A DNA stretch of 59,586 nt from Candidatus Chloroploca sp. Khr17. GTDB lineage: Bacteria; Chloroflexota; Chloroflexia; Chloroflexales; Chloroflexaceae. The stretch covers positions 33,982 through 93,567 of the forward strand of contig NZ_RYFF01000020.1 in NCBI RefSeq assembly GCF_004138165.1, given 5' to 3'. The position numbers and the translations under genes were made by a program. Of the stretch, positions 16,324 through 53,472 are shown piece by piece. Position 1 is the first letter of the stretch. The number at the start of each line of letters is the position of its first letter. The notes beneath the pieces are model-generated. The model saw only the letters and a list, made by a program, of their open reading frames with translations. It made no database searches and was not told the origin of the DNA.

Positions 16324-16334
16324 CGGGGTAGGTG

Positions 16335-28157: not shown

Positions 28158-28190
28158 GGGCACGGCGGTGCCATGACCCAACGGAAGAAT

Positions 28191-35600: not shown

Positions 35601-36859
35601 CTATCGCCAATCGGCGATCATAATAGCGCTACCTCTGGAAGGAATGCCTCCTCCGCCAGCAACTCTTCGGCCATTGCCGTCGAGAACAGTAATAGTCACT
35701 TCTTGACCTACTTGCAAACCACATAAACGAGCATTCCCACCAGTATCAAAGCGACCACTTAGACCAATTCCATCCACCACGAAGTACCAACCTGCAGGAG
35801 TAATACCATTAATTTTAACCGAGATGCAACGAGGATCGTCATTGTAATTCACTACTCTGAACCGAAGCCTCTTAGCTTCAGGTTGAGGTGCTGGTACGGG
35901 TGTTGGTGGAGGTCTGAGACGATCTAAGGCTGCTTGCGCAACTGATGTATTTGAAATAGGGAGAGCGACAGCTTTGGCATAGATGCGTCGAGCATCACTA
36001 AGATTACCTTGCCGTTCGAGTTGTTCGCCATATGCAATGTATGCATCATAGAGCAGAGCATTGCTATCAAGAAAATTCGCTTGTATTGCAGCTAACTCCT
36101 CGAACTTAATTGCTGCATCACGCCATTGACGCTTCTTGTTCAATGCTACTCCATCAAGGTAGAGTACTAAGATTTGCTGCTGAGCAAGAGCCAACTGATG
36201 TGACGGATCAACGGCAAGCGCTGCATTGAATTTATCAAGTGCATCAACTGGCTGCTCTCCCCTAATGAGTTGAATTCCCCAATTGTAGTAGGTAGAACTC
36301 AACTTTTCGGTTACATCTAGATAGTTTCTGTCACTCTGGTAAATGGACTGAAAAGCATCGGCTGCATCACGCCATCGCTCTTTGGTGTAAGCATCGACTC
36401 CTTTCCTATAGTTTAGTGCGTTTACCGTTCGGGTATCTGGGGTTGGAGATCGTGCCGCGATAGAGGTTCTGGACGGAGAAGTTCTGGGTGTAGCTGAGGG
36501 CCTTTGTTGCTCTGGTCTAGAGGTCGGTTGAGTGCGCACCGGTGTAGCGGTATCAGCGCTGGCTACTACTACAGCAGCTGGCTCACGATTAGGCGACTGG
36601 CTAACCTCGGGAGGAGGTGTGCCATTACGCCCAATGATTACACCAATCAGCACCCCCACAATGAGCAAGACACCAACCCCGATTGCGATCACAATTGGTG
36701 GAAAAGTTCGTTGTGCTATGCCTCGTGTAGGCGGTGTTGACCGTTGAACCTGCTTTTCAGGAACATCAATCGGCCCCACCTCTTTCTGCTGGAGATACTG
36801 TTGATACTCTTCATCATTAGCATCGATCTCACCGTGTTTGTTAAATGTGGGCATAAACA
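35601..36859 (-). CDS. Island operon gene 14: single-pass membrane protein with TPR-like helical repeats and a C-terminal beta-rich domain.
   Basis: Start at ATG 36859/36853 ('MFMPTF'). TM 'FPPIVIAIGVGVLLIVGVLIGVIIG'. Repeats carry a W-x2-A-x3-[FL] signature ('WRDAADAFQSIY', 'WRDAAIKFEELA'). The layout matches the ectodomains of 47366-49150 and 50021-52735. Confidence 0.7.
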
Positions 36860-36931
36860 TCCTCGCCTGGCAAAAACGTGCGGTTAATTCCACCACAACT
36901 GACTACAGATAAGAATACATAAGCGTACAAA

Positions 36932-37735
36932 TCAACGTGTTAAAGCGCGTTGAACCATTGCCGAAGGGCGCAGAGCTTGATCACTCTCGAGAAACGCCCG
37001 CGCCATCCGCATGGGTTGGTAGCGGCGCGAACCTACCACCACGACACTATCCTCAAGCGGATCCGCTAGATCCCAACGCCCCAGTCCATGACGTACCAGT
37101 ACCTCGCCGATGTAAGCACCAAATGTACGTACATTGGCTGTAAGCAGATCTTCATCCCGTAGGAATGTACGATGTTCATTGTCTACATTGAACTCGAAAC
37201 GTTCCAGGCTCTCGACGGAGTAGTCGAGAGCAAGATCTTCATAGAGTGCCGTACGAAAACGTTCAGCTAGGGTAGCCGGTTCGAGCTCTTCCGCATCCGT
37301 GTCTTCATCATACGTATCACCATTGAAGGCACGGTAGATGAGCTCAATGGTAGCTTGGAGGTGCGCTATCGTCTGAGTCACTGTTGCGGCCGTGAACGTT
37401 GGTAGTGGACGATCACAGATCAAGCAGAGGTCACGATCATGATCGAAAGATAGACATGCATCCACTAAGTCATTGTTCATTTGGCTCATTATCAATGCAA
37501 GGGGACTGATATCTTCCCCTTCCTCAGCCGCATACAAGGGCGTTATGCAAAAACGCACATACTCATCGCCAAGTGGCCCTATCTGGGGATATGCCATAAG
37601 ACGGAATGTGCCGCTCGTAGTAGGCCCAATCGGACACTCGATGTCGAAATAGATAATAGGTTGATCGCTATCAGGATCTTCAACGTCGTAGACAAGCCCT
37701 GCTGTGGTGAAAGCAGTCGTAAAAGATATAGACAC
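36932..37735 (-). CDS. Island operon gene 13: strongly acidic cytoplasmic protein, possibly a chaperone/immunity-like partner of the basic proteins.
   Basis: GTG 37735 is preceded by AGGAG ('taggagtaagcctGTG'), immediately after the stop of the upstream gene. Asp/Glu-rich runs include 'DVEDPDSD' and 'YDEDTDAEELEP'. The N-terminal half looks YbjN/chaperone-like by eye only. Confidence 0.65.
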   Translation of the reverse strand: MSISFTTAFTTAGLVYDVEDPDSDQPIIYFDIECPIGPTTSGTFRLMAYPQIGPLGDEYVRFCITPLYAAEEGEDISPLALIMSQMNNDLVDACLSFDHDRDLCLICDRPLPTFTAATVTQTIAHLQATIELIYRAFNGDTYDEDTDAEELEPATLAERFRTALYEDLALDYSVESLERFEFNVDNEHRTFLRDEDLLTANVRTFGAYIGEVLVRHGLGRWDLADPLEDSVVVVGSRRYQPMRMARAFLESDQALRPSAMVQRALTR

Positions 37736-37748
37736 AGGCTTACTCCTA

Positions 37749-38390
37749 TTACGGTATCTGACGAATTTCCACATTTTTACGCTTCGCGGCTGTAATACGC
37801 TGCTTGATTATCGCATTTTGTTCAGGTGTGGTGTTCTTTGGCTTTGGAACCGCGACAACAAGATTGCTATTCTTGCTGGATAAAGCGTTTAATTCGGGAT
37901 TTTTATTTGATTTAAACTTCTTGTCCTTATAAGATTTGACTTGTGATATCTTTCTGTTGAGATTTTTTTGATCAACACCAGCGATACCCTTTACCGGTCG
38001 ATAATTTTCAATCAATTCAAATTTAAATTTTTTCGGATCAGTACTCCGCTTTAGCACCCTAAGTGTGTCAACACGTTTTCTATTCTCAAGTGCTACTTCA
38101 GAGAAAACATCTCCGCGCTTAATTTGCTTATAGTTTGGCGGTGTTTTTCCCTGCAAAGTAGTTGCAGACTTCGGTTTGCGATTGTGTAATTTTGCATGGT
38201 AATTTGTGGAGATTTTGTTGAATTTATGTCCATTAGCTGTATTTCGCCGCAGTTGTGTTCGCTTAAGCTCATTTGACGAAGAGACATTGCGTGCGGCAGC
38301 TTTCATTTTTGTTTTGGAGATCGGAACGGAGATGCTACTTCTATTTACTTTGGGTGTGCCATGCGTAGATTTGCTGCCAACTTTTTTCAT
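37749..38390 (-). CDS. Island operon gene 12: extremely basic Lys/Asn/Arg-rich protein of unknown function. It is the lowest-GC gene in the window.
   Basis: SD 'aggggtg' before ATG 38390. 213 aa dominated by K/N/R/S/T ('KKFKFELIENYRPVKG', 'KSYKDKKFKSNKNPE'). In the 60-nt line starting at 37861 I count 18 G+C. Confidence 0.7.
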   Translation of the reverse strand: MKKVGSKSTHGTPKVNRSSISVPISKTKMKAAARNVSSSNELKRTQLRRNTANGHKFNKISTNYHAKLHNRKPKSATTLQGKTPPNYKQIKRGDVFSEVALENRKRVDTLRVLKRSTDPKKFKFELIENYRPVKGIAGVDQKNLNRKISQVKSYKDKKFKSNKNPELNALSSKNSNLVVAVPKPKNTTPEQNAIIKQRITAAKRKNVEIRQIP

Positions 38391-38410
38391 TTCACACCCC
38401 TATACATTCA

Positions 38411-38977
38411 TTACTTCTTACGCACAATCTTTGGTCTGCCCTGGAAACGTCCGAGCCGCCGCGCCTGTTCGATATGCTGTTCGTTGCGCTCTTGCATCTG
38501 TGCAGCTTCAAAATCGCGCAGGATCTCGTCGGGTTTCTGTAGTGGTTCGGCATGGGGCATAAACATGCTGCTGAGTGCTGCCAACCCCACGAGACCATCA
38601 ACTGTCTTCACCGCAGTGTAGGCTTTGGCCTGATTGAACTTGCCTTTGAACCAATTTAGTTTAGATATTTGATTCGGTGTGGGGGATTTTGGCTGATTCG
38701 AGCCACGAACAGTAGGGTGCTGCAGACCTCCTCGCACGTTGCGTGTTGGCAACGTACTGCTTGGCTTCGCCTTAACTTGTTTTAGTGGTGGCGTCCGAAC
38801 CTTTGATGTTGGGTGCTTCGCCAGTTTGCGTGTCGCTTGCTGCAACTTGACTGGTGTAACCCGCTGCCGGGCGGTTGTTGAAGCAACTGGTTGTAGAGCA
38901 CGTACTGGCGGCGTAGGCTTTGGGGTATTGGGGTTGCTCACACCTGCCCCACTTTTAGTACTCCGATTAACCTTCAT
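38411..38977 (-). CDS. Island operon gene 11: basic Pro/Thr/Lys/Arg-rich protein of unknown function.
   Basis: ATG 38977-38975 overlaps the TGA 38976-38974 of the upstream ATPase gene (ATGA coupling). The N-terminal ~110 aa are low-complexity and basic ('KPTPPVRALQ...KHPTSKVRTPPLKQVKAKP'). The C-terminus is helical ('DEILRDFEAAQMQERNEQHIEQARRLG'). Confidence 0.65.
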   Translation of the reverse strand: MKVNRSTKSGAGVSNPNTPKPTPPVRALQPVASTTARQRVTPVKLQQATRKLAKHPTSKVRTPPLKQVKAKPSSTLPTRNVRGGLQHPTVRGSNQPKSPTPNQISKLNWFKGKFNQAKAYTAVKTVDGLVGLAALSSMFMPHAEPLQKPDEILRDFEAAQMQERNEQHIEQARRLGRFQGRPKIVRKK

Positions 38978-41787: not shown

Positions 41788-41806
41788 ACGGGTGCCTTCC
41801 TGATCA

Positions 41807-43195
41807 CTAAGCGTAAGCGGTCATAACGGCTTCGACCAGCACAAGTAGATCGCACTGGGGCGTCCAGTTAGCGAGCGGTTCAGGCATGAAGCGCTGCTCT
41901 TGTCCATCGAACTCTACAAACATAGTTGGAGCCTCTTGGGGATACCGAGCCGTACAACTAAAATAGATGCCGAGGGTGTGCCCAAGCTGATCACGCAGGC
42001 TGACACTGACCAGGAAGACGTTCGCATCTTCGTGTAGGGCGGCGTTTAGTCCCTGTGCTAGCATTGCGCCTATCTCGTTGCGCAGGCGTTCGCCAGCACC
42101 TGCGCCGCTGAAGCGTGCGACGGGTGACGGTAAAGCGGGAACAGTCACACCATACATCCCTCCGAGAGTAGCTGTAGGTGGGGCTACGGCCTGTCCGGTG
42201 AGCGCCCCAAGCAACACCTGTTGAAGGTCATTGCTACCTGCCGCCGATGTCCCCATCGGCAGCATCCCCGCCTTCGCCATCTCGGTCAGGGCCAGTAAGC
42301 GTTGTCCATCTGTTTGCGCTTTATCACCAAAGACACGCGTGTACATGTCTGGATTGGTCAGCAAGAGATATTGCGGTGTCAATTCAATCATGCGCGAGAT
42401 ATTCATCTGTGTGAGCGCCTGTGCCATCGCAATCTCGGCCTGCGAGTTCGCCTGGATCTTCGCGACCTCGGCATCAGTTTGCGCCTCGCGGGTACGCATA
42501 TAAACGTCACGTAATTTCTTGTCCAGTTCTTCAGCACCCGCAATACGCGTGATCTGGACGTTCGAGACTCGTATTCCCAAGTTGTCTTCAATGCCGCGTT
42601 GCTGCAATTGCTGTGCAACCATGTAACCTGCATGACCGCCCGCCTGGAAATCCTGGTATTTAGCAATTGATGCAGTGATCGAACGAATTGATTCCATCAC
42701 CGTATCATAGAGCCTCGTGAGCGGCTGTTCGACGACAAGCGCAACGTGTTCAGGATGAATTATCTGATAACTGACTGCAACATCGAGATCAACTGGCAAT
42801 GCAATCTTCTCACCCTGGGGCGGCTGATAGAAAATCGTAAACTCCTTCGTCGTTGTTATATCCAGCGTGCGCTCACGCGTATTGACCACGTAGAGATCAA
42901 TGCGATTCATCACGGGAAACGAGAGCGCGTGATAACTCCCTTCTTGCAGCACTTCGAGCACTCTGCCATCCCCGGTCACAACGACGGTAGTGCCAGCCAT
43001 AACCCGAAAGATACGAAAGATACTGGTGAAGACATTGTTATGAACACGTACTGGACCAAAGACAAGGGGTGAATTACTTAGATCAGCAAACGGTTCACGC
43101 AGGAAGTCATCAAGCGAGCCCTGTCTGCTCGCTGCTTCCTTATCGTTAACGTGACGACGGTTTAGGGGCATGGTCTGGTCACGGTTAGTTCCCAT
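41807..43195 (-). CDS. Island operon gene 9: SPFH/Band-7 (flotillin/prohibitin-like) domain fused to a C-terminal UEV/RWD-like (non-catalytic E2-fold) domain.
   Basis: ATG 43195 follows 'ggaaggag'. The SPFH-like core runs from 'VVVTGDGRVLEVLQEGSYHA...' through 'VDLDVAVSYQIIHPEHVALVV' and 'GIRVSNVQITRI' to a coiled-coil 'AQTDAEVAKIQANSQAEIAMAQA'. C-terminus 'LGIYFSCTARYPQEAPTMFVEF...NWTPQCDLLVLVEAV'. Confidence 0.7.
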   Translation of the reverse strand: MGTNRDQTMPLNRRHVNDKEAASRQGSLDDFLREPFADLSNSPLVFGPVRVHNNVFTSIFRIFRVMAGTTVVVTGDGRVLEVLQEGSYHALSFPVMNRIDLYVVNTRERTLDITTTKEFTIFYQPPQGEKIALPVDLDVAVSYQIIHPEHVALVVEQPLTRLYDTVMESIRSITASIAKYQDFQAGGHAGYMVAQQLQQRGIEDNLGIRVSNVQITRIAGAEELDKKLRDVYMRTREAQTDAEVAKIQANSQAEIAMAQALTQMNISRMIELTPQYLLLTNPDMYTRVFGDKAQTDGQRLLALTEMAKAGMLPMGTSAAGSNDLQQVLLGALTGQAVAPPTATLGGMYGVTVPALPSPVARFSGAGAGERLRNEIGAMLAQGLNAALHEDANVFLVSVSLRDQLGHTLGIYFSCTARYPQEAPTMFVEFDGQEQRFMPEPLANWTPQCDLLVLVEAVMTAYA

Positions 43196-43229
43196 ACGAG
43201 CCAACTCCTTCCTGAGGCGCACAAGGTTG

Positions 43230-44453: not shown

Positions 44454-44464
44454 CGGCAGACTCC

Positions 44465-45865
44465 CTATTGCAGTGGCTTCCCTTGATCTGGTTGAACCGA
44501 TGTTGGAAATACATAGCTGCGGTTGAACTCAGCGCAGAGGTCAGCCGCACTACGACAGGCCAGTTCAACTTGACGTACGATCAGACGACCTTGAAATTCG
44601 AGCAACTCACCAATGCGCTGGGATGGACGTGGTTGGGTCAAGGTTTCAAGCACATTGCGCACTACATCACGTAGGCGTATATGGGTACGCCAACCACCAG
44701 GAAAGAGTTGTTCAGTCACAATACGTACTACGTTATCATCACTCAACACGACTTGGACTTCAGGCGCTTGCTGCGGAAACTGTGAACCAGGATCAAGCTT
44801 AATAGCTTTGATCTGTAGCGGCTCTGTTTGCGCAACTGGCGCGACATTTACCATCCCCTCCGGCGTTTGCTGGGGTGCTGGGATTATCTCAGGGATATTC
44901 AGGGTCATTAGGGGCGGATGCGTAAAGGTAATCGTATACCAAACTCCGTTATCATCGCGCGTATGTACCTCCAGATGCGCCCCAGATCGCAAGGTCTGGC
45001 AGTACTGTTCCAGATCCTGTTGTTCGCGTGCAAAGCGGCCAGGAAGGGGAGGGATTGGCGGAATGCTTGCATCAGGTGGTGAACCTGAGAAAGGTGGTAT
45101 TTCAGGCGGCACGAAATCAGTCGCTGAACGACGAGTGTAAGAGGAACTTTCTAGATCGATGACCTCCAGGGTATCAGGAGGTTCCACATCTAGTGTGTAA
45201 GGTGAGGTATGTGGCTGCACCGGAGGATGGGAATGCAGATTGGCCCGGGCAGCACGGAGATCGGCCGGGTTGACTCCCCAGCGATCAGCAGTTCCTGATG
45301 TTGCGTGAGGAGGTTTTGGCGCAACTGTCTGTTGTTCTAGCGCAACCAGACCATCCAACAAGACGCGAAGGTCGCCTTCGACAAGCTCACATGGCACAGG
45401 CGTCGCACTCATCGTCTCACGGGGATAGTAGTGCCCATGGAGCAGAAATGTACCATCTTCAATGGTTACAAGTGGGGTGAAGATACCGTGGGGCAAATGA
45501 TAGGACTCATCGCTCAAGATATCGACCACCTGAAGCGTATCACCCGAACTTGGCCGATGCAAACCTGGCGGATGCTTATGCCACTCACCAACATAATCAA
45601 CGTGGTAGGTGGCGTAGTGCTGACGCCACGTTTCCAGGTCGCGTTGGCGAGCAAGTGCATCTGGAGCATAGGTATGCGCCCGTCGGTCGGCATTGCTACC
45701 AGGACCAGAGGCTGCCACAACGACGAGGTGGAGTCCATCGGGGAGTTGGAACATACGTCCAACCAGGATGCCGCCGGTCTCACGTCCAGGGCTCGTACAT
45801 GCCTCGTCGTACATCCGCTGATAGACATCTTGTTGGGCCAGATAGACGGTATTTGGTACTGGCAT
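44465..45865 (-). CDS. Island operon gene 7: JAB/MPN+ (JAMM) metallopeptidase fused to a C-terminal UEV/RWD-like domain.
   Basis: ATG 45865 lies one nt after the E2 stop codon (TAA 45869-45867). 'ETGGILVG'. An intact JAMM motif 'HKHPPGLHRPSSGD' (H-x-H-x7-S-x2-D) at 45539-45580. C-terminus 'IKAIKLDPGSQFPQQAPEVQVVL...GGWRTHIRLRDVVRNVL'. Confidence 0.85.
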   Translation of the reverse strand: MPVPNTVYLAQQDVYQRMYDEACTSPGRETGGILVGRMFQLPDGLHLVVVAASGPGSNADRRAHTYAPDALARQRDLETWRQHYATYHVDYVGEWHKHPPGLHRPSSGDTLQVVDILSDESYHLPHGIFTPLVTIEDGTFLLHGHYYPRETMSATPVPCELVEGDLRVLLDGLVALEQQTVAPKPPHATSGTADRWGVNPADLRAARANLHSHPPVQPHTSPYTLDVEPPDTLEVIDLESSSYTRRSATDFVPPEIPPFSGSPPDASIPPIPPLPGRFAREQQDLEQYCQTLRSGAHLEVHTRDDNGVWYTITFTHPPLMTLNIPEIIPAPQQTPEGMVNVAPVAQTEPLQIKAIKLDPGSQFPQQAPEVQVVLSDDNVVRIVTEQLFPGGWRTHIRLRDVVRNVLETLTQPRPSQRIGELLEFQGRLIVRQVELACRSAADLCAEFNRSYVFPTSVQPDQGKPLQ

Positions 45866-45866
45866 G

Positions 45867-46322
45867 TTAGTCTGCCTCAATTCCAGGCCAATAGGTTTTC
45901 CCTGACTCAAGCCAGGTTTCGTAGGCAAAGAACCAAGCGGCGGCTACCGCGATCACGGTTGCTGCCGTGGTTTGCTGGGCAAACGAACGATCACCAGGGT
46001 AGTAGAGGCATAGGTGTCCATCGTTATACTGGTGCTTGAGGCGGCCTGCTTGCTCGTCCTTCCAGACGGTAATCGCTGGGTTAATGGGATAAACTTTAGG
46101 CGGATCATCGGGAAAGTTGTCAGGATAGTAGAGTGCAATCTCATAGCGCCTTTCGCGATTACTCTCTAAGGTGCCGATCCAGACCAACTGGTTACTATCA
46201 CGCACGAGCTGAAACTGGGGAAAGCGCGTTTCCATAGCTCTCTTTTCCAGTACGAGTCGTGCGGGATTAAGGTCATACCACGCTGCATACCAGCGCATCG
46301 GACGGAGAATAGTTTGGCCCAT
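45867..46322 (-). CDS. Island operon gene 6: E2/UBC-like ubiquitin-conjugating-type enzyme with a candidate catalytic Cys.
   Basis: 'YEIALYYPDNFPDDPPKVYPINP' is the E2 flap motif (46098-46115). 'KHQYNDGHLCLYYPG' has the Cys codon at 46008-46010 (H..N..G.lC, as in E2 HPN...C). A C-terminal helix 'TVIAVAAAWFFAY' follows. Confidence 0.8.
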   Translation of the reverse strand: MGQTILRPMRWYAAWYDLNPARLVLEKRAMETRFPQFQLVRDSNQLVWIGTLESNRERRYEIALYYPDNFPDDPPKVYPINPAITVWKDEQAGRLKHQYNDGHLCLYYPGDRSFAQQTTAATVIAVAAAWFFAYETWLESGKTYWPGIEAD

Positions 46323-46387
46323 CGTAACTACCCTTATTCGTTGCTGCTTAACAGTGCTTTAGATGTCTATGTCCACAAGTGGATCGT

Positions 46388-46588
46388 TTATGCTCGTGTA
46401 AATAGGGCAAACCAGCGCTGCGGTTTAAGCACTGTCTTGCTCTGTGGATCGGTCTGCGCGACCTTGGGATCTTCTGGGACGTGCATCTTGCCATCCGGAC
46501 TGACGACAACTTCCTGTGCGGTGGCAAGACGCTTCTTAAGTTCTTCCAGGCTGGATTGTGGGCTACGAGGGGGTTGTGGCGTGCTCAT
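46388..46588 (-). CDS. Island operon gene 5: 66-aa hypothetical protein, probably disordered, occupying the position where a Ubl gene would be expected.
   Basis: ATG 46588 is preceded by a strong SD ('caggaggtacaccaccATG'). Sequence: MSTPQPPRSPQSSLEELKKRLATAQEVVVSPDGKMHVPEDPKVAQTDPQSKTVLKPQRWFALFTRA. There is no C-terminal Gly and no obvious beta-grasp pattern. Confidence 0.55.
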   Translation of the reverse strand: MSTPQPPRSPQSSLEELKKRLATAQEVVVSPDGKMHVPEDPKVAQTDPQSKTVLKPQRWFALFTRA

Positions 46589-46640
46589 GGTGGTGTACCT
46601 CCTGGGATTTGCTGACACGACTGGTATACGTACAAGGGAA

Positions 46641-47357
46641 TTAGATAATACGTTCGGTATATTGTGCCCAAACCGACTGTTGCGTCGGTGGCTGGTTCGT
46701 GACTTGAGCATAAGAAATGAGGCCCAAAAGGTTGTTGACCACTGCCAGCAGTGAACTATTGCCATTCCAACTGCGCAGAACAGACGAATCAAGTGCGAGG
46801 TGATGTTCGGCTAGTTCACCACAGGCATCAAACCCGAGCATGGTGGCAATGAGCTGCGGTGCGATAATTGGATAGTCATCCGTACAAATGAGATGGATCG
46901 AGACATTCTCCCCATCACTCCGTGCCACCCGGATCTGAACACAGTACTCTTCGACATCCGGGCGCCCGGCGAGGCTCACCGCCTCGTAACCATTACTGCG
47001 TAACTTCGCTACTTCTTGCGTCAAACGTTGCACCACATTTATTGGGGTAACATCAATCACTTGGCGACTTGCAACTGGGGTTCCGGCTGGTGTAAAACCA
47101 CCCGCGCCGGAACTCCAGGTTGGTACCTGCGATGAAAGCGTCGAAGTGTCTTCATGGATTGGCATTGGAGGCGGGCGCATGGTGGGACTAGCCGGTGGGA
47201 GAATGAACGCTTTACCCTGTTTTGATGTTACTTCTGATTGGCTCGTTGTGGCGCGTCGCCCACTCCCGCCTCGTTGGAGTACGAAGACAACGAGGATCAG
47301 GACGACGAGAACGAGGACGCCCCCACCAGCAATGATCAGCAGAATTGATGTATCCAA
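46641..47357 (-). CDS. Island operon gene 4: N-terminal TM anchor, Pro-rich linker and UEV/RWD-like domain.
   Basis: TTG start at 47357 follows GGAGG, which overlaps the upstream TAG ('TAGGAGGcgtcTTG'). TM 'ILLIIAGGGVLVLVVLILVVFVL'. 'VSIHLICTDDYPIIAPQLIATM...SWNGNSSLLAVVNNLL'. Confidence 0.7.
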   Translation of the reverse strand: MDTSILLIIAGGGVLVLVVLILVVFVLQRGGSGRRATTSQSEVTSKQGKAFILPPASPTMRPPPMPIHEDTSTLSSQVPTWSSGAGGFTPAGTPVASRQVIDVTPINVVQRLTQEVAKLRSNGYEAVSLAGRPDVEEYCVQIRVARSDGENVSIHLICTDDYPIIAPQLIATMLGFDACGELAEHHLALDSSVLRSWNGNSSLLAVVNNLLGLISYAQVTNQPPTQQSVWAQYTERII

Positions 47358-47365
47358 GACGCCTC

Positions 47366-49150
47366 CTAGCGGGGTATGATGCGTACCAGATAAGTCGCAC
47401 TGGTACTCAGATCCAGGTTCGCTTCGCCTACCATCGGCAATTCCGCCAGGCTCAGCAAGTAACGTCCACTGGGTAGGGCCGCACTCGCGACACCTGTCTG
47501 ATCAGTCACGATCTGGCGATTGCCGCTCGATCCCACAAGGTTGAGTACCAGATTAGAGGTAGGTGCAATAATCAGCAGATTGACCGGATCGCCATTGATC
47601 TGCGTTGCGAGACGACGATCCGTAAGCAAACGCGTCCATTCAGATGCATCGAGTCGGGTTGTAATGATTTGATAGGCACTCGTGCTTGCAAGCAAAGCTT
47701 CGGCTTCGCGCTTGAGTTGGCGCGCACTTTCCCCACGATCCTCTGCAACCTGAGCAAGGCTAAGTGCGGCGTTGGCCTGAGCGAGCGCGTCGGTGCCAAC
47801 TGTCCCGCCGCGTTCGAGCAAGGCTAGACCGTAACCGACATAAGAATCGTAGAGCCACTGCTCGACGGTGCGTACCGCAGGGTCGCTTGTGTTAGGCCTT
47901 AATTGCACGGCCTGTTCAAGTTCGCTGATCAGGGCGGGCCATGTAGCGACACTTGCATCGCGGAATTGTGTCGCCCGTGCAATCCACTTCAAACGATCAG
48001 CTAGTCCTTCAAGATCTTGCTCCAGAGTTGCAGCAAGTACATAATGCTCGTGAGACTCAATGACATCCGTGGCAAAGAGGAGGTCACCCCATGCCAGCTG
48101 GGCTTGTGCCAAGCGGGTCTTGACGCCTATCGCTGCTTCAGGACTCTGCGCTTCAGGGTGGAGAACATGGATCTGTTCAAGCAGGGCTACTACTTGTGCC
48201 CAACTTGCCGTGGTATTCACTGCCCATAGTTGCTCGGCCTCAGTCCAGAGCGTCTTCGTCCGGGCTTCGATAACAGCAACTAGTCCAGCCTGAGCATCAG
48301 AGGAGGCTGGATCAAGCGCGAGAGCCTGGCGAAACATGGCTTCCGCCTGATCAAGTTGGTTCGCTTCGAGGAGTGCGGACGCATAACGCTCATAGGCGGT
48401 GATGAGCGGGATTGGATTGGCAACCAGGCTACCGCAACTACCACCCACCCCGCTCTGACCACGGTTGTGCATTGCTTCGAGGGTATGGGTTACTTGCGCG
48501 AGGGATTCGCGATCACCGACTGCATAGGCTTGAGCCACGAACTGCTGCTCGGAAGCGCACGGATCGTAGAGCAAGGTATAGTAGAGTAGCAACCCCCCGG
48601 CAATGAGCAGGGTGACACCTCCACCTACCACGGCTAAGATCTTCCCTGTGGCGGAACGACGCGTTGGGGTAGGAAGGGGACGTTCTTCACGAGGTGGCAA
48701 CTCCTTAGGGAATGGCACATCAAGTGGTGGCATGGGGGCCACCGGTTCAGCAATGCGTGCAAGCCGTAGATTGGAACTCTGTACGCTGTCCTGGACTTCC
48801 AGAACGATTTCGTAGAGCATCTGGCGACTCGACCAACTGAGACGGGTTTTTGACTCGACATCAATCGGGAGTTCTTGTAACTCGCCGTAGCTTGTTGTGC
48901 CGGGTGTGGTCACGGTGACCACAAGATTGGGCGCCGTAGCTGGAAAATTTGCATCAAGCTGGAAGTAGAGATGCACCGGCTGTGGCCCTTCGTGCGTGTC
49001 ACGAACCAACTCTACTGTTAAGTAGTAGCGCTGAGCACTCGCGTCCTGCTGGAGGTCGCAAGCATAGCCCATATCACGGATGGCCTTGACCTCTTGACCA
49101 ATGCGCTCAGCGTGACTTTGGTCAGCGGCCATGGGGGGGAGGGATGACAT
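47366..49150 (-). CDS. Island operon gene 3: UEV/RWD-like domain, TM, helical (TPR-like) repeats and a C-terminal CarboxypepD_reg-like beta-sandwich.
   Basis: 'PVHLYFQLDANFPATAPNLVVTV...SWSSRQMLYEIVLEV'. TM 'ILAVVGGGVTLLIAGGLLLYYTLLY'. Repeats 'SWAQVVALLEQIHVLHP' and 'TWPALISELEQAVQLRP'. C-terminus 'DQTGVASAALPSGRYLLSL'. Confidence 0.75.
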   Translation of the reverse strand: MSSLPPMAADQSHAERIGQEVKAIRDMGYACDLQQDASAQRYYLTVELVRDTHEGPQPVHLYFQLDANFPATAPNLVVTVTTPGTTSYGELQELPIDVESKTRLSWSSRQMLYEIVLEVQDSVQSSNLRLARIAEPVAPMPPLDVPFPKELPPREERPLPTPTRRSATGKILAVVGGGVTLLIAGGLLLYYTLLYDPCASEQQFVAQAYAVGDRESLAQVTHTLEAMHNRGQSGVGGSCGSLVANPIPLITAYERYASALLEANQLDQAEAMFRQALALDPASSDAQAGLVAVIEARTKTLWTEAEQLWAVNTTASWAQVVALLEQIHVLHPEAQSPEAAIGVKTRLAQAQLAWGDLLFATDVIESHEHYVLAATLEQDLEGLADRLKWIARATQFRDASVATWPALISELEQAVQLRPNTSDPAVRTVEQWLYDSYVGYGLALLERGGTVGTDALAQANAALSLAQVAEDRGESARQLKREAEALLASTSAYQIITTRLDASEWTRLLTDRRLATQINGDPVNLLIIAPTSNLVLNLVGSSGNRQIVTDQTGVASAALPSGRYLLSLAELPMVGEANLDLSTSATYLVRIIPR

Positions 49151-49207
49151 AGCAACTACTCTCTTGTAAGCGACGCGAATGCCCAGCGTTGACGAGCCTT
49201 ACGAAAC

Positions 49208-50017
49208 TCAGATCCGGCCATAGAGATCAGTAACAATCGTTGCCAGACGACACGAACCGTCCCAGGGGAAGAAGATTCCGGAACCAATATTGAGCGAGGT
49301 GCCATGGCGCTCGACAACCACGGAAGGTGGTTGCTGAGGGTAAGTTGGCTCACACACCATATAGATCGTCGTCCCATCCTGTGGTCGGGTAACGGTTACG
49401 CAGCACGTGCCGTCTTGGAGGGTATTGATCTGGACGGTGCCAAATTGGGCCAGTGCTATGCGCTCACCAGCGATACGCTCGGCGAGATCCAAACTAGGAC
49501 GAGGTGTGGCTCCCCCTACCGTCTGGTGCGGGCTAGGTGGTGGATCAGGTGGTAGTAATGGCCCCGAACTACGTAGCCCAGCAGTAGGGGAGGCGTTCGT
49601 TCTAGCTATGAGTCCGCTCGTCCGGAGATTGCCGTCCGACCTAGAGGCTATAGTAGGCCCGCGGCCCATTGAACTGCCAAGCACGAGGCCAAGCAGTAGG
49701 CCGGGAGCTGTCCCAAGCAGCATTGCCACACTGTACATACGCAAACTCCCAAGGGCTAGTCCTAGATTATCGCTCAGCAGCATATTTAGGACACCACAAA
49801 GCAGCACAAAGACGAGCGCACTAGCTGCGGGGCCAACGAAGATCGCCCAGTGGTAACCTTGTGCGACACGCCCGCGTAAGAGTAGACCTCCACCCAGGCC
49901 CCCGATGATCAGCCCGATCATTGCCAGAGCTAGAACCACCAGCGGGTTCGTGCTGATCAATAGGCCCATGCCCAGGAAGAAGAGACAACTGACGATGATA
50001 ACCATTGCTGCAAGCAT
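49208..50017 (-). CDS. Island operon gene 2: 4-TM Gly-zipper membrane domain, Pro-rich linker and UEV/RWD-like domain.
   Basis: ATG 50017 lies 3 nt after the upstream TAA, with GGAGGA inside the last codons of the upstream gene. TM segments include 'GLIIGGLGGGLLL'. 'TTIYMVCEPTYPQQPPSVVVER...PWDGSCRLATIVTDLY'. Confidence 0.75.
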   Translation of the reverse strand: MLAAMVIIVSCLFFLGMGLLISTNPLVVLALAMIGLIIGGLGGGLLLRGRVAQGYHWAIFVGPAASALVFVLLCGVLNMLLSDNLGLALGSLRMYSVAMLLGTAPGLLLGLVLGSSMGRGPTIASRSDGNLRTSGLIARTNASPTAGLRSSGPLLPPDPPPSPHQTVGGATPRPSLDLAERIAGERIALAQFGTVQINTLQDGTCCVTVTRPQDGTTIYMVCEPTYPQQPPSVVVERHGTSLNIGSGIFFPWDGSCRLATIVTDLYGRI

Positions 50018-50020
50018 GGG

Positions 50021-52735
50021 TTATTCCTCCAGGCTAACAGTAATTTTGTAGTATTTCGATTTCTCGAAGCTAAACTCAATTGCTGTTGATCGAATTTTTG
50101 TTTCACCACCTACTGATTCCACTGTCAGTCTATTGCGGCCATCAATATTCATAAACTTAAAGCTTACACGAATTTCAGAATCTCCTCCTCTTAAAATTGC
50201 ATCACTAGGCCCTACGAGAAGTACATTAACATTTGGAGGCGGCGTTCCACCATTGGCTTCGGTCATCTCATTCTCTGAAATTTCACTAATTGCGATTCTA
50301 TATAGGGGCCATGTAGCTTCCTCAGCCGTTTGGGTTTGGGTTTGGGCTTGCGCCAGAGCCTCCGCTTGTGCGGTAGCAGCAACAGCAGAGGCTGTGGCTT
50401 CAGCATTAGCGGTGGCACTAGCAGCAGCAGCAGCAGCAGCAGTAGCGCTGGCCTGGGCCACAGCCGTGGTCGTTTGCGCCTGTGCGGTTGCGGCGGGGTT
50501 AGGTGTGGGGCGGGGTGTAGAGACATCAGCAGCCAAGGCACGATTAGCACTTTCCTTTAGCTTGGCAACTGTCTCTGCTGTCTCTGCTGTCTCTGCTGAG
50601 CTCGGCCTGACGGCTTCACTACCAAAGTCGTCGAGTTGCTCCAGCAAGCTTAATGCGTCTAAGACCGCACGCCAATCAGTACGATTGAGCGCCTCTTCAA
50701 CTTCAGACCATAACTCATCGGCCTGCGTCTGGGTAGTATTGGCATCATCAATGGACTGATCTAATGCATCATCACCACGCTCATTCGTACGCAAAAAATC
50801 TGCATTTACCCTGGCTTCATTGATCTGAGCCTGTGCATCGTCAAGCTTCCCATCCCGCCAGAGAGCACGGGCATATTTTAGGCGGGTCTCAGACTGGATT
50901 TTAGCCACGTCTGATATGCGTGGATCACCTCCTTGAAATGCAACAGGATCCGGTAAAAGGCCAGTAGTTGCTACAATTTCGTCAAGGATCCTCACCGCCT
51001 GTTGCCAATTACCATCGTCTACTGCTTTATCGTAGCTGGCCCACTCGGCCTCTAACCGCTGCACGTCACCAAGAGCATCAACAGCTTGACGGATCTCAGT
51101 ACGTAGTGCGCTGAGTTCCTCCTGTAAGGAGCGCGAGATTTGGCTGTCATTGCCTTCCGGCCAATTAGTAGATAACAGCGTTCGTGCCTCTACCAGTTTC
51201 TGTGCTTCCACGTTTTCAGTATCAATCTTTGTACGCACCTCGGCCATGAGCACTTTCACGAACCAATCGTTAGCTCGTTGCTTCGCTTCGTCATCCATAC
51301 TCAAAGCAGCACGCTGAGCCTGCTTCGCTACCTCGCGTGCGAGGTCGAACTCAGGTGGCTCAGCAGCAAGATAATCGTTGATTAACAGTAGGCGCGCATC
51401 ATGGATCAATTGCGTGATGTCGCGTCCTCGTGGGTCCGTAGTTTCACCTTCTTTAAGTCGTTCCTGTAACTTAGCAATGCGCTCTGAAAGCGAGAGGTTA
51501 GGATTATCTATTTCGATCCACATAGCGATGGCGGTCTGGGTTTGGGTAGCCTGAAGAGCAGCAGTCGCCGTTGCGTCGCTCGCTGTCTGATCCAGAGTTA
51601 AAGTTGCGCTAGGTGTCTGTTCGATCCCAGTCAATGGTTCCTGGCCCTGTGGTTGACCAACCTGCTCACCACTGGACCAGATCTGCCAACCGACAAAGCC
51701 AAATAAACCAAGCGCTACGAGTGATAAGGCCGCAACGAGAACAACAAAGCCTCCATTCTGGCGTTTCCTTGCCGCAGTTCTCGATGGCGGCGAAACCGGG
51801 CTAGGCGTTGATGGATGCACGACAGGAGCAATGGGCAGTGCAGCGGCGACGGGCATCGCACGAAGAACGCCCTCGACTACATCAACCAAGTGTGAATTGC
51901 CGTTATGATAGGTCCACTGGTTAATCACACCATCATCGTTCTGTGGCAACGCAGTGCCAGCCCGTTCAATGGCTACCAGGGCCGGTGGTACTCGTGGGAA
52001 GTCATTCGGGGCCATCAGATAGATCGTGAGATCAGGATGCTGGTTCGTGCGGACTTCAAAGAAGAAATTCGTATCTTGGCTCTTCAGCGTCACCTGATAG
52101 CCCCGCTCACGAAGCAAACGATGCTCTTCGCCAATACGATCATTGATCGGTGGGCTGCTTGCACCATCAGCTCGCTCGCGCTGGATCAGAGGATGCTCAT
52201 CATCAATTTCATGCACACGTGAAGCCTGAATTTCTACAAAAGGCTCACGCCGTTGCGCCATTTGGCGACTCATGTAGTAGTAACGGATGGTAAACTCACC
52301 GCGATCAACCCAGACAATCGGGTTAATGATCTCATTGATTTTATAGGCCGGATCGCGAAAGACGGCATGGGCAGTGGCGACATCACCCGCACTAAATGTC
52401 TGGTAACGTGCAGGATGTTTATGCCATGTGCCGATATAATCTGTTTTCGGGTAGCGGGCGTGATATTCTTGTAACTTACCGTTAACATAGTCAATGTCGG
52501 GATTAAATTCCACCGGATGGTGATACGCATTTTCACCCGGCCCAGTGGCTGCAATGATCAATAGCTGAACGATCTCTTCCCCATCAAGACGTCGTCCAAC
52601 CAGGATGCCCCCAGTCTCATTTTCCAAACTCGTTGTACTACCTCGCCGGGCTTCCTCTTCAATCAGGCGGCGGGCTGAACGCGTGATATAAATCTTACCA
52701 GGGAGCGGTGACTTCTGGGTACTGAGCTGTGACAT
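50021..52735 (-). CDS. Island operon gene 1: JAB/MPN+ metallopeptidase, UEV/RWD-like domain, TM, ~550-aa helical-repeat region and a C-terminal beta domain.
   Basis: SD 'ggagga' lies 5 nt before ATG 52735. 'ETGGILVG'. Intact JAMM 'HKHPARYQTFSAGD' at 52382-52423. 'LTIYLMAPNDFPRVPPALVAIE' with FPRVPP at 51983-52000. TM 'GGFVVLVAALSLVALGLFGFVGW'. Helical repeats ('NWQQAVRILDEIV', 'DWRAVLDALSLLEQL'), an Ala/Thr/Gln low-complexity stretch, and a beta-rich C-terminus. Confidence 0.8.
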   Translation of the reverse strand: MSQLSTQKSPLPGKIYITRSARRLIEEEARRGSTTSLENETGGILVGRRLDGEEIVQLLIIAATGPGENAYHHPVEFNPDIDYVNGKLQEYHARYPKTDYIGTWHKHPARYQTFSAGDVATAHAVFRDPAYKINEIINPIVWVDRGEFTIRYYYMSRQMAQRREPFVEIQASRVHEIDDEHPLIQRERADGASSPPINDRIGEEHRLLRERGYQVTLKSQDTNFFFEVRTNQHPDLTIYLMAPNDFPRVPPALVAIERAGTALPQNDDGVINQWTYHNGNSHLVDVVEGVLRAMPVAAALPIAPVVHPSTPSPVSPPSRTAARKRQNGGFVVLVAALSLVALGLFGFVGWQIWSSGEQVGQPQGQEPLTGIEQTPSATLTLDQTASDATATAALQATQTQTAIAMWIEIDNPNLSLSERIAKLQERLKEGETTDPRGRDITQLIHDARLLLINDYLAAEPPEFDLAREVAKQAQRAALSMDDEAKQRANDWFVKVLMAEVRTKIDTENVEAQKLVEARTLLSTNWPEGNDSQISRSLQEELSALRTEIRQAVDALGDVQRLEAEWASYDKAVDDGNWQQAVRILDEIVATTGLLPDPVAFQGGDPRISDVAKIQSETRLKYARALWRDGKLDDAQAQINEARVNADFLRTNERGDDALDQSIDDANTTQTQADELWSEVEEALNRTDWRAVLDALSLLEQLDDFGSEAVRPSSAETAETAETVAKLKESANRALAADVSTPRPTPNPAATAQAQTTTAVAQASATAAAAAAASATANAEATASAVAATAQAEALAQAQTQTQTAEEATWPLYRIAISEISENEMTEANGGTPPPNVNVLLVGPSDAILRGGDSEIRVSFKFMNIDGRNRLTVESVGGETKIRSTAIEFSFEKSKYYKITVSLEE

Positions 52736-53189: not shown

Positions 53190-53201
53190 GTATCATGATA
53201 C
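53190..53201 (+). promoter_or_regulatory. 12-bp perfect palindrome abutting the hicA start codon (candidate HicB operator).
   Basis: 'gtatcatgatac' at 53190-53201, with the ATG at 53203. Confidence 0.3.
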
Positions 53202-53202
53202 T

Positions 53203-53469: not shown

Positions 53470-53472
53470 GCC

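Follow-up and report, generated by a model that had tools for sequence, protein, structure and literature searches.

A fourteen-gene operon of Candidatus Chloroploca combining CBASS-lineage E1, E2 and JAB enzymes, Cys-less E2-like domains, an SPFH protein, a VirB4-like ATPase and a candidate non-beta-grasp tag

We analysed a stretch of 59,586 nucleotides from Candidatus Chloroploca sp. Khr17 (the window) in which 14 consecutive genes on the minus strand, at 35601-52735, bring together E1, E2 and JAB enzymes of ubiquitin-type conjugation, Cys-less E2-like domains, an SPFH protein and a hexamer-type ATPase (g01 to g14; Table 1). The 13 intergenic gaps all fall between -26 and +71 nt. A first-pass annotation of this DNA had counted the same 14 genes and quoted four junctions, which are exact on re-reading: an ATGA overlap at 38974-38977, TAAcATG at 45863-45869, TAGGAGGcgtcTTG at 47355-47368 and TAAcccATG at 50015-50023. 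The lower GC content that it reported is likewise real, the operon standing at 0.525 (0.477 in its last 3.4 kb) against 0.597 in the 35-kb left flank. This left part of the window is ordinary chromosome, with genes for 2-oxoglutarate dehydrogenase, diaminopimelate decarboxylase, PEP carboxylase and large surface proteins. Two gene models had to be changed. The fifth gene, taken for a maximal open reading frame (ORF) of 134 residues, is actually an ORF of 66 residues, and the SPFH gene most likely starts at 43195 instead of 43315, in agreement with the starts of its orthologues.

Table 1. Genes of the operon (g01 to g14) and the adjoining sigma/anti-sigma-like pair, in window coordinates
Gene	Position	Strand	Product and features
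g01, 904 aa	50021-52735	-	intact JAMM/JAB; Cys-less E2/RWD-like domain (~197-294); transmembrane segment (~326-353); ~550-aa helical and beta-rich ectodomain
g02, 269 aa	49208-50017	-	polytopic membrane protein with 3-4 transmembrane segments (1-117); C-terminal Cys-less E2/RWD-like domain (176-268)
g03, 594 aa	47366-49150	-	E2/RWD-like domain (1-130); transmembrane segment (169-194); TPR-containing helical region; C-terminal beta-rich ectodomain
g04, 238 aa	46641-47357	-	N-terminal transmembrane anchor; linker; Cys-less E2/RWD-like domain (104-215)
g05, 66 aa	46388-46588	-	helix, short strands, flexible linker, TVLKPQRWF and variable tail ALFTRA; candidate tag or E2 substrate
g06, 151 aa	45867-46322	-	E2 of the E2-CBASS family; catalytic Cys105 at 46008-46010; N-terminal extension TILRPMRWYAAWY
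g07, 466 aa	44465-45865	-	soluble intact JAMM/JAB; divergent C-terminal E2/RWD-like domain (~336-410)
g08, 407 aa	43230-44453	-	ThiF-type E1; extra ~105-aa N-terminal domain; GLGSGGS, DxD, four-Cys zinc site, conserved C163 and C230
g09, ~462 aa	41807-43195	-	SPFH/Band_7; C-terminal Cys-less E2/RWD-like domain; GGAAGGAG Shine-Dalgarno at start 43195
g10, 937 aa	38974-41787	-	VirB4-like N-domain (1 to ~400); HerA/DUF87 P-loop domain, Walker A GATGSGKT at residue 441
g11, 188 aa, pI 11.7	38411-38977	-	basic disordered N-terminus; conserved C-terminal ~100 aa with one hydrophobic helix
g12, 213 aa, pI 11.0	37749-38390	-	basic, rich in Lys; stands at a variable 'effector' position; weak likeness to nucleases
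g13, 280 aa, pI 4.4	36932-37774	-	acidic protein; YbjN/T3SS-chaperone-like domain; start overlaps g12 by 26 nt
g14, ~419 aa	35601-36860	-	short cytoplasmic N-terminus; transmembrane helix; TPR repeats; C-terminal beta-rich ectodomain
ECF-type sigma factor	54153-54956	+	Sigma70_r2, r4_2; neighbour, outside the operon
anti-sigma-like protein	55281-56084	+	soluble, Cys/His-rich; neighbour, outside the operon

The enzymes recognised at first pass, namely an E2 with a Cys, two intact JAMM peptidases and a ThiF-type E1, are all confirmed by profile searches. The E1 (g08) matches ThiF in Pfam at 5e-35 and the Cap2-type E1 models of PADLOC at up to 5.7e-41; its relatives in the PDB are UBA5 (7e-18), MoeB, MccB (5e-12), ThiF and, more distantly, Cap2 (4e-7). 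The E2 (g06), which was not caught by the Pfam copy used, is matched by the PADLOC E2 models at 1.9e-24 and aligns, catalytic Cys included, with the solved E2 of E2-CBASS (PDB 8hsb, E 1.3e-3; CBASS, cyclic oligonucleotide-based antiphage signalling system). Its orthologues are matched by PF26395 (E2-CBASS), and C105 and H97 are invariant across 14 of them. The JAMM signature E...HxH(x7)Sx2D is intact in both g01 and g07. The former matches Prok-JAB at 5e-7 in Pfam and the JAB model of PADLOC at 7.6e-18, with ETGG at residue 40 and HKHx7SxxD at residue 105, and has orthologues in four of the related loci described below (L001, with 42 % identity, L009, L017 and L044). The latter matches Prok-JAB at 2.5e-8 and conserves E29, H96, H98, S106 and D109. 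The NCBIfam Cap3 model also matches an operon JAB, at 2.3e-7, below its cut-off.

As judged from their sequence profiles, the accessory domains of the operon are E2 variants of the UEV/RWD-like type. A local iterative search started from the N-terminus of g03 gathers, besides the N-terminal half of the active E2, domains of g01, g02, g03, g04, g07 and g09, and in a first tblastn pass the E2-like domains cross-match at 1e-4 to 1e-8. Profile A1, built from 13 sequences that cover five domain types (the sixth, that of g07, being assessed separately), displays an N-terminal helix and a YPxxPP motif corresponding to the YPxxxP signature of the fold; R, E, P..P, E and W are invariant in it, and no Cys is conserved. 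When A1 was compared with all PDB sequences, 46 matches out of 46 were E2, UEV (Mms2/Uev1, Tsg101/Vps23, Vps37) or FANCL RWD-type proteins, the best at E 3.6e-4. In hhalign, the RWD-like family aligns with the active E2 family (89 %, E 2e-6) and, over the C-terminal half of the fold only, with the C-terminal region of g07 (93.6 %, E 2e-7). Pfam RWD is found on g03 at E 0.003, beside TPR matches, and weakly on the g04 orthologue of Oscillochloris; the g02 orthologue of L001 is 57 % identical. The proposal of six extra Cys-less E2-fold-like domains thus agrees with the profiles.

Four of these domains had been placed on membrane proteins, and a hydropathy scan concurs. It predicts transmembrane (TM) segments in g01 (one), g02 (three to four), g03 (one), g04 (one, N-terminal) and g14, and by the positive-inside rule the E2-like domains of g01-g04 face the cytoplasm. 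The succession of TM segment, helical region and beta-rich domain described as common to g01, g03 and g14 holds as a layout, but pairwise similarity among the ectodomains is at best E 0.007 (g01 against g03). In g14, which is duplicated in Oscillochloris, the helical region matches TPR_2 (4e-7) and TPR_14 (1.6e-5).

One E2-variant domain is carried by the SPFH protein g09 (Band_7 at 2.5e-8 in Pfam). In the known SPFH-NfeD scaffold operons SPFH is paired with NfeD, whereas g09 has no predicted TM segment, is fused to the RWD-like domain and stands in an operon in which no product matches NfeD. The ATPase g10 has Pfam matches to HerA_C, FtsK and DUF87, and its family profile reaches HerA (PDB 4d2i) at 1.9e-10. 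It had been called HerA/FtsK-like. This is right for the P-loop half alone, which scores best with HerA/DUF87 and bears the Walker A motif; the fold of the N-domain matches TrwK/VirB4, and next EccE of the type VII secretion system (T7SS), and not the HAS-barrel, so that the overall architecture is VirB4-like. Pfam CagE_TrbE_VirB was not found on g10. Compared with VirB4 of type IV secretion systems (T4SS; TrwK of R388) and with EccE, g10 differs by its P-loop, which is closer to HerA/DUF87, and by its SPFH-RWD partner, and no other T4SS or T7SS component was detected among the operon products. In plasmid and phage sequences, tblastn finds distant relatives of its P-loop half, those on plasmids with at most 36 % identity, and one match alone spans the N-domain as well. 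In this match, on a mobilizable plasmid of Priestia megaterium (L042; NZ_CP064271.1, 106849-113322), a 963-residue hypothetical protein is 27 % identical to residues 26-782 of g10, VirB4-like N-domain included; the next gene encodes a 1135-residue hypothetical protein, and no SPFH or E1/E2 genes are annotated nearby. No near-identical plasmid DNA was found for the window. Among the IMG/VR viral contigs, neither the ATPase nor g05 has a relative, a result that is neutral as to defence.

The basic/acidic trio of the first-pass annotation (pI 11.7, 11.0 and 4.4) stands by its charge; the three proteins look like a small protein of the membrane, an effector that varies between loci and resembles nucleases, and a chaperone. 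The C-terminal half of g11 is 38-51 % identical in L001 and L004; the protein has no family match and is probably a small membrane-associated partner of the ATPase. The g12 protein matches the restriction-endonuclease-like Pfam family CDI_toxin_EC869_like at E 0.0015, below the family cut-off. Other loci have different proteins at this position: a UPF0102/YraN PD-(D/E)xK protein in L001 (3e-4) and in L004 of Oscillochloris (3e-5), a protein with a weak NERD match (0.065) in Chloroflexus aggregans and an AHH toxin (3.7e-13) in L044. Proteins at the g12 position are not conserved between loci, and they have long disordered charged N-termini. For g13, a local jackhmmer search ties the protein to L005 (13403-13813) and L009 (13267-13671); its homologues match YbjN at 3.7e-5, above the cut-off, and also TY-Chap1, a family of type III secretion system (T3SS) chaperones. 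The Oscillochloris orthologue is 41 % identical. g13 does not belong to a known Imm family, and no recognisable Imm-type protein occurs in the window. These profile matches suggest that g12 and g13 are an effector and its chaperone or immunity partner, although weakly for the window itself.

A survey of gene neighbourhoods finds the gene order kept in at least ten independent loci of Chloroflexia and Anaerolineae, with the accessory genes in synteny with the E1/E2/JAB set. The succession of JAB-RWD-TM protein, RWD proteins, g05, E2, JAB, E1, SPFH-RWD, ATPase and small proteins is seen in L001, L003, L004 (the same as L007, from the cultured Oscillochloris trichoides DG-6), L008, L009 and L017 (both Anaerolineae), and L034, L037 and L044 (all metagenomic). 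Only four homologues of g03 were retrieved among 5.8e9 proteins, and their contigs have this same gene order. The locus is almost certainly a real, conserved multi-gene system with the domains described here.

The ATPase is far more widespread than the conjugation enzymes. It has more than 272 homologues and occurs in 25 of 185,579 species genomes, nearly all of Chloroflexota (one is a metagenome-assembled genome labelled Cyanobacteria, another Thermoclostridium). E1, E2, JAB and g05 accompany it in four of these 25, and a tblastn matrix likewise shows g05, E2, JAB, E1 and the extra RWD proteins in some ATPase loci only. A core of SPFH-RWD protein, ATPase, YbjN-like protein, TM-TPR protein and basic protein is found in about 20 Chloroflexota genomes without any E1/E2/JAB. 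There, the SPFH gene lies beside the ATPase gene or a few kb upstream, with differing accessory genes; the SPFH C-termini from 12 such loci match the RWD-like family (hhalign 99.3 %, E 6.5e-21), TM-TPR proteins related to g14 occur in ten, and relatives of g13 recur as well. In Chloroflexus aggregans, for example, the locus consists of Band_7, TM protein, ATPase, basic protein and YbjN. Since the core occurs in genomes without E1/E2/JAB, we consider it very probable that the operon is composite, with an older core (g09-g14) and an E1/E2/JAB module (g01-g08). In the versions with E1/E2/JAB, where the E2-like fold has been copied onto two JAB peptidases and four membrane proteins, two of which (g01, g03) have large ectodomains, the economical inference is that the copies bring peptidases and sensors to the same assembly.

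Both modules are also met with other partners. L006, from Anaerolineae (Logan SRR21762701 contig, 1-21000), has the core with six DnaJ and/or double-zinc-ribbon proteins in place of E1/E2/JAB and RWD proteins, and this array is followed by PglZ, PDDEXK_4, BrxL, HSDR_N and McrBC, that is, a defence island. L044 (Logan ERR13731070 contig, 356-21186) adds two caspase-like CHAT proteases, one of them an SPFH-g05 unit-CHAT protein, and Pepco; directly 3′ of its ATPase gene lie the AHH toxin, which has a Gly/Asp-rich acidic N-terminus, Imm11 (3.2e-10), and a metallopeptidase-like protein with a small partner. A minimal g05-E2-E1 module is found in L043 (Logan ERR14788459 contig, 1-8476), where CHAT-VMAP and MoxR-like AAA genes precede a 1547-residue NTPase ending in a g05 unit, an E2 of the E2-CBASS family and, from the ThiF group, a short E1 without the N-terminal domain; the contig ends there, and a JAB gene may be missing from it. 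L040 and L041 encode g05-E2 fusions.

We propose that the operon is a horizontally acquired two-module conflict system, for defence or antagonism, of filamentous Chloroflexota, and give this reading a probability of roughly 0.55. The full mechanistic picture, in which we infer every biochemical step as well as the biological role, is less probable than that. A conflict or defence role taken by itself is likely, and it is the gene context of relatives that points to it. The elements of this context are the lower GC, the adjacent HicAB genes, the CBASS ancestry of the enzymes, an integrase gene and an HTH_17 excisionase-like gene upstream in one relative, the PglZ/BrxL/McrBC (bacteriophage exclusion, BREX) surroundings of the relative without E1/E2/JAB, CHAT, Pepco, AHH and Imm11 in L044, and VMAP/MoxR in L043.

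Within a conflict role, an intracellular anti-phage or abortive-infection system is plausible, at somewhat less than even odds. Its ectodomains would sense envelope attack, tagging would activate an ATPase-nuclease or a CHAT protease, and the JABs would reset the system. The CBASS lineage of the E1/E2/JAB set, the HicAB neighbours and the BREX/McrBC island agree with this, as do the CHAT, VMAP/MoxR and STAND partners in relatives, which are known from anti-invader conflict systems (PMC7159879). A HerA-type ATPase with a PD-(D/E)xK nuclease is, moreover, a known defence pairing (PDB 8wiv, 8xau, 9c1m). Indeed, the operon resembles the HerA defence systems (Sir2-HerA, DUF4297-HerA, NurA-HerA) in encoding a HerA-type hexameric ATPase with a nuclease-like effector, and in having a relative in a defence island; it differs from them by the VirB4-like N-domain, in place of the HerA HAS-barrel, by a variable basic effector with a YbjN-type partner, and by the lack of SIR2, DUF4297 and NurA. 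It also resembles the vWA-MoxR-VMAP/FtsH ternary systems (PMC7159879), which occur mainly in multicellular or filamentous bacteria and have a conjugation set as a regulatory add-on, with a modifier fused to other proteins and presumably released by JAB. CHAT effectors occur in relatives of the operon, and in L043 CHAT-VMAP and MoxR-like AAA stand directly upstream of the NTPase. However, the window has no vWA, MoxR or VMAP, the modifier of the ternary systems is a beta-grasp ubiquitin-like protein (Ubl) used with a RING E3, and the SPFH/VirB4-like core is not theirs. Against an anti-phage system, PADLOC gives no system-level match, only generic E1/E2/JAB/HerA models, the AHH and Imm11 pair with the chaperone fits export better, and the N-domain of g10 resembles VirB4 more than the HAS-barrel of HerA.

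Export is the other possible role, at slightly lower odds. The operon would then encode an apparatus comparable to T4SS or T7SS that exports toxins against other bacteria. The VirB4-like ATPase, an SPFH ring and the membrane proteins would translocate toxins of the basic nuclease or AHH kind with help from the YbjN chaperone, and tagging would select or license the cargo. The N-domain of g10, VirB4-like and next EccE-like, speaks for it, as does the conservation of a YbjN/T3SS-chaperone-like protein beside the basic protein. In L044, AHH with Imm11 and the metallopeptidase-like protein with its small partner directly after the ATPase are a hallmark of exported polymorphic toxins, and the disordered charged N-termini of the toxin-position proteins are of the same tenor. 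On the other hand, the searches detected neither a channel-forming component nor a coupling protein, and neither signal peptides nor known trafficking domains, and the window has no recognisable Imm. The BREX surroundings of one relative and the CHAT, VMAP and STAND partners of others agree with intracellular systems against invaders, and HerA-type ATPases scaffold intracellular nucleases in known defence systems.

The first-pass annotation named no modifier, and g05, encoded directly upstream of the E2, is a strong candidate. Its sequence is 100 % identical to that of a hypothetical protein of Candidatus Chloroploca sp. Khr17 (Chloroflexales, Oscillochloridaceae). Its identity to orthologues (76-83 %) makes it one of the best-conserved genes of the operon, with the E2 (78-82 %) and the ATPase (72-78 %). 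In the 14 loci for which adjoining DNA is available, g05 is without exception directly upstream of the E2 or fused to it, and none of the loci with the ATPase but no E2 carries it. The 43 homologues, of 53-89 residues, have in common the helix LEELKRRL, the short hairpin region VVVDxxGxLHxPxDP, a linker whose length varies and the tail TVxKPxRW[F/Y]. In 21 of them RW[F/Y] is the exact terminus; in the remaining 22 it is followed by 1-11 unconserved residues, which are ALFTRA in the window protein. Such an exact terminus with variable tails is the pattern of ubiquitin-type precursors.

Further forms of the g05 unit were retrieved by a profile search of 1.84 billion representative proteins. Two units lie head to tail in P0168; three, head to tail without spacers, are fused directly to an E2 in P0195 and P0201 (the latter from L040), and a single one in P0205 (L041). 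The N-terminal extension TILRPMRWYAAWY of the window E2 is, by comparison with these fusion proteins, homologous to the g05 tail and retains RW[Y/F]. In P0196 the unit is internal to an SPFH-...-CHAT protein. P0192, the NTPase of L043, is a 1547-residue AAA_16/NACHT-type protein with the unit at its extreme C-terminus, ending KPQRWF, and with E2 and E1 genes directly downstream; its gene holds the position of the CD-NTase substrate in type II CBASS. A conserved terminus with disposable tails, head-to-tail precursors and fusions are gene-level habits shared with ubiquitin-type modifiers and with the CD-NTase substrate of type II CBASS. In the divergent proteins P0197, P0209, P0215 and P0216, two to four tandem units of the same helix-hairpin type, with a different tail (...GFKPVDKAVVA...), are fused to an E2-like domain, which suggests that repeat-unit-E2 proteins form a wider, undescribed family outside Chloroflexota.

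No operon product ends in Gly, and none matches Ubl, ThiS or MoaD. The C-terminus of g10 was considered as an E1 substrate and rejected: it reads LIGAGA in the window and LLGGAK in L001, but orthologues have LVGTTP (Oscillochloris) and SLLR (P0008), so that it is unconserved. A terminus other than Gly has a precedent among E1-like enzymes. MccB, a PDB relative of g08, adenylates a C-terminal Asn. On these sequence patterns, we lean towards g05 being the covalent substrate of the operon E1 and E2.

E2-CBASS offers the closest comparison for g05. There, as reported in a 2026 structure paper (PMC12948482), the CD-NTase has at its C-terminus a unique 'E2-binding motif' of about 47 residues, with one helix and a three-stranded sheet; the conserved terminal Gly that comes after it becomes attached covalently to the E2, and proteins that fuse CD-NTase and E2 also occur. 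In the operon, as in E2-CBASS (CdnG and E2; 8hsb), the E2 belongs to PF26395 (Cys aligned, PADLOC 1.9e-24), the gene directly upstream encodes the presumed E2 partner, with a C-terminal region of about 45-50 residues made of a helix, three strands and a tail, and partner-E2 fusions are found. We therefore propose, from the same element composition and the same gene position, that g05 may be a free-standing form of the E2-binding motif with RW[F/Y] replacing Gly. The differences are several. The operon lacks both a CD-NTase and a cyclic-nucleotide effector; the partner stands alone as a protein of 54-66 residues, or sits on an NTPase or an E2; it ends KPxRW[F/Y] and not Gly; and the likeness of g05 to CdnG is one of secondary-structure elements only. 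E2-CBASS, for its part, has no E1 or JAB, whereas the operon has an E1, two JABs, the RWD array, SPFH and the ATPase.

Alternatively, g05 could be an unconjugated adaptor or docking module that recruits NTPase, CHAT protease and E2 to one another, like effector-associated domains, and the E1 and E2 would act on some other C-terminus, such as that of the ATPase, or the E2 would be E1-independent as in E2-CBASS. We regard this main rival as unlikely, though it deserves to be weighed. An adaptor domain typically occurs as the g05 unit does, at N-termini, at C-termini, internally (P0196), in tandem and on differing partners. The E2 retains RW[Y/F] in cis, g05 has neither a beta-grasp nor a Gly terminus, and some ATPase orthologues end GG-x-x or GAGA. 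An adaptor, however, does not predict that half of the free-standing proteins end at the same residue and the rest carry unconserved tails, nor does it predict spacer-free head-to-tail arrays fused to the E2. It would also leave the E1 substrate-less, given that the ATPase C-terminus is unconserved and no other product has a conserved Gly terminus.

With g05 as the covalent substrate, the two-module conflict system could work as follows. The core (module B, g09-g14) would handle a toxic effector at the cytoplasmic membrane, by export or by activation. It would consist of an SPFH-RWD scaffold, a hexamer-type ATPase with a VirB4-like membrane-docking N-domain, a basic membrane protein, a nuclease-like effector, a YbjN-type partner and a TM-TPR protein. 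The conjugation set of CBASS lineage (module A, g01-g08) would have been added onto this core. The tail of g05 may be trimmed by a JAB peptidase or by the E2 itself; the E1 would adenylate the exposed KPQRW-F carboxylate, the tag would pass to Cys105 of the E2 and be ligated to targets, for which the Lys-rich g11 and g12 and the RWD proteins are candidates, and the two JAB peptidases would reverse the tagging. The Cys-less E2-like domains of g01-g04 and g07, possibly copies of the SPFH fold, would dock the peptidases and the TM sensors, with their TPR/beta ectodomains outside, onto the assembly. They may, in addition, bind the tag non-covalently, as UEV domains bind ubiquitin; such a binding of g05 is possible because the active E2 of the family binds an equivalent motif. 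Envelope events would in this way control tagging, and hence the ATPase/effector module. In its most specific form, this would be a tagging pathway without the ubiquitin fold, in which a tag of about 55 residues, a helix and a small sheet ending KPxRW-F/Y-COOH, gates a VirB4-like toxin-handling translocase. The tag would be made with a removable tail, as poly-precursors or in fusions with its E2 or a sensor NTPase, activated by E1, carried by E2, read by dead-E2 domains on transmembrane sensors and an SPFH scaffold, and removed by JAB. We put this forward as a tentative and rather improbable extension.

Several observations weigh against this picture. The AlphaFold2 model of g05, only moderately confident (pLDDT 67, pTM 0.37), consists of a helix, three short strands and a tail that extends freely. 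This is no beta-grasp, and Foldseek gives no structural match. Neither Foldseek nor a PDB sequence profile recovers the CdnG motif with g05. A docking or adaptor module would also be consistent with the sequence patterns of g05, as the E2 keeps its RW[Y/F] and the P0196 unit is internal. To our knowledge, no E1-E2 cascade is known to use an aromatic C-terminal residue. The SPFH E2-variant domain also occurs without g05, E1, E2 and JAB and is thus independent of the conjugation enzymes, so that reading the tag cannot be its sole or original role; most simply, the RWD-like domain originally served protein-protein docking within the core. The nuclease assignment of g12 goes back to its below-threshold match (E 0.0015). 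Finally, scans for promoter and terminator consensus found fewer sites than in shuffled sequence and are uninformative on the transcription unit.

Among systems with a full conjugation set, type II CBASS (Cap2/Cap3) is close in its enzymes: its E1, E2 and JAB triad is of the same lineage (PADLOC 5.7e-41; NCBIfam Cap3, cap2_3). There, a substrate without the ubiquitin fold is conjugated through its C-terminus and released by JAB; this is established for CBASS, and we infer the same for the operon. Unlike type II CBASS, the operon encodes E1 and E2 as separate genes with a JAB gene between them, its E1 has an extra N-terminal domain, and it has two JABs, one of them membrane-tethered. No CD-NTase domain was found in the operon products with Pfam, PADLOC or NCBIfam, the sole match to a PADLOC cyclase model (PDLC00816, by the E2) lying in the C-terminal E2-like part of that model, and PADLOC and Pfam detect no cyclic-nucleotide-activated effector (CapV, Cap4, Cap5, TM-SAVED). 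The Bil (6C/CEHH) and Bub (6E/polyUbl) systems share with the operon an E1, an E2, a JAB deubiquitinase and a small modifier, in the operon a candidate one, with a C-terminal extension or tandem repeats (PMC1779556; 10.1101/2023.09.26.559546; 10.1101/2024.11.21.623953), and the 6e type also has a Cys-less RWD-like E2 domain. However, their modifiers are beta-grasp Ubls ending in Gly, and no beta-grasp was found in the operon; conversely, the six E2-variant domains (four membrane-tethered), SPFH, the VirB4-like ATPase and the toxin/chaperone cassette set the operon apart. Their own partners, such as a multidomain E1 with a CEHH E2, or a JAB-E1 fusion with polyUbl and a Zn-finger, are not matched by it, and rows 6a-6e differ (PMC1779556).

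The architecture had not been recognised at first pass, and our comparisons lead to the same result. PADLOC v2 returns generic E1/E2/JAB/HerA models only, NCBIfam has no equivalog, and neither these two collections nor Pfam include a named subtype of this kind. The five operon types of Iyer et al. 2006 (PMC1779556) are all built differently, and the descriptions of CBASS types I-IV, Bil and Bub that were consulted gave no match. The literature searched, whose coverage leaves out most subscription-journal papers, holds no description of this gene combination. The enzymology is of a known kind, that of CBASS-lineage E1, E2 and JAB. What is new is a candidate tag that is not a beta-grasp, the number of E2-variant domains (six), their tethering to the membrane and the coupling to a core of SPFH, VirB4-like ATPase and effector. 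There is a substantial chance that the biology of the tag is more novel than this familiar enzymology.

Bacterial E1/E2/JAB systems, such as type II CBASS, Bil and Bub, are under active study, both as roots of ubiquitin signalling and as immune regulators. The set of dead E2 (UEV/RWD-like) domains reported here is the largest that we found in one bacterial operon, and its carriers are membrane sensors, a peptidase of deubiquitinase type and an SPFH scaffold. The candidate modifier appears to be a free-living form of the E2-binding motif, with poly-precursors and fusions like those of ubiquitin genes. The conjugation enzymes are coupled, physically and genetically, to a VirB4-like ATPase and a toxin/chaperone cassette, and the uncharacterised SPFH-RWD and VirB4-like ATPase core is widespread in Chloroflexota. 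If true, a pathway with a non-ubiquitin tag would be a bacterial counterpart of ubiquitin-dependent cargo handling, in which a UEV receptor, a JAMM deubiquitinase and a hexameric ATPase act together, as in the endosomal sorting complexes required for transport (ESCRT) and the proteasome. The predictions are directly testable, since Oscillochloris trichoides DG-6 is cultured and carries the whole system.

Next to the operon lies a gene pair for an extracytoplasmic function (ECF)-type sigma factor and an anti-sigma-like protein, and homologous pairs adjoin the operon in L001 (30 %) and in L004 of Oscillochloris (41 %), their position and orientation varying from locus to locus. The regions upstream of the three sigma genes (window 53794-54152; L001 4109-4378; L004 16993-17804) share GTTCTCG and TATAATG, which in the window form a promoter-like GGTTCTCG-N15-TATAATG. 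A sigma-dependent promoter common to the operon and the sigma gene was considered and rejected, neither 7-mer being present in the operon upstream region. The pair probably regulates expression of the operon. It has also to be asked whether the operon is instead an envelope-stress pathway that feeds this pair, with tagging or cleavage of the anti-sigma as its output. We find this improbable. The pairs do flank the operon in three Chloroflexales loci despite rearrangement, three proteins have TPR-repeat ectodomains, and g01 has a marginal NCBIfam anti-sigma match (E 0.009). Yet the pair is absent near the Anaerolineae and other versions, and may just regulate the operon; the ATPase, toxin, chaperone, CHAT and Imm11 content would be left unexplained; and no 7-mer is common to the three sigma upstream regions and the operon upstream region. 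A HicA/HicB pair (53098-53793, plus strand; Pfam 3.9e-7 and 1.4e-21) stands between the operon start and the sigma-factor gene. It looks inserted in the window, because in L001 the sigma gene and the operon diverge from one 270-bp region.

The least probable origin, by a wide measure, is a remnant or core of a conjugative DNA-transfer apparatus (integrative and conjugative element, ICE, or T4SS) with E1/E2/JAB cargo, for the VirB4-like fold, the GC below that of the flanks, the integrase and HTH_17 excisionase-like gene upstream in one relative and weak NCBIfam matches to CedD, a DNA-translocating ATPase, and to a JAB family of ICEs are set against the lack of any relaxase, coupling protein, VirB6/VirB8-like protein, lytic transglycosylase or replication function in the 14 products or their neighbours (Pfam, NCBIfam, PADLOC), of any close plasmid match (at most 36 % identity) and, in the window, of an integrase, a tRNA gene or the HTH_17 first gene present in relatives.

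Other features of the window were noted in passing. Directly 3′ of the operon and before the PEP carboxylase gene, an ORF at 34982-35455 (minus strand) encodes a polytopic membrane protein of 157 residues; we kept it out of the system because no family matches it and relatives have no conserved equivalent. Several predicted surface proteins of very large size, apparently unrelated to the operon, are encoded within 34-10432 and 20241-28157 on the plus strand: a Kelch/beta-helix/PPC protein (1870 residues), an fn3/VWA protein (1418), a CARDB/PPC protein (1384) and a TIG/Peptidase_C13 protein (756). An AAA_16-Trans_reg_C regulator is encoded at 16332-17681. At 28001-30000, a strong negative AT skew of -0.28 to -0.31 coincides with a putative ABC-type protein gene (PF16949, 6e-45).

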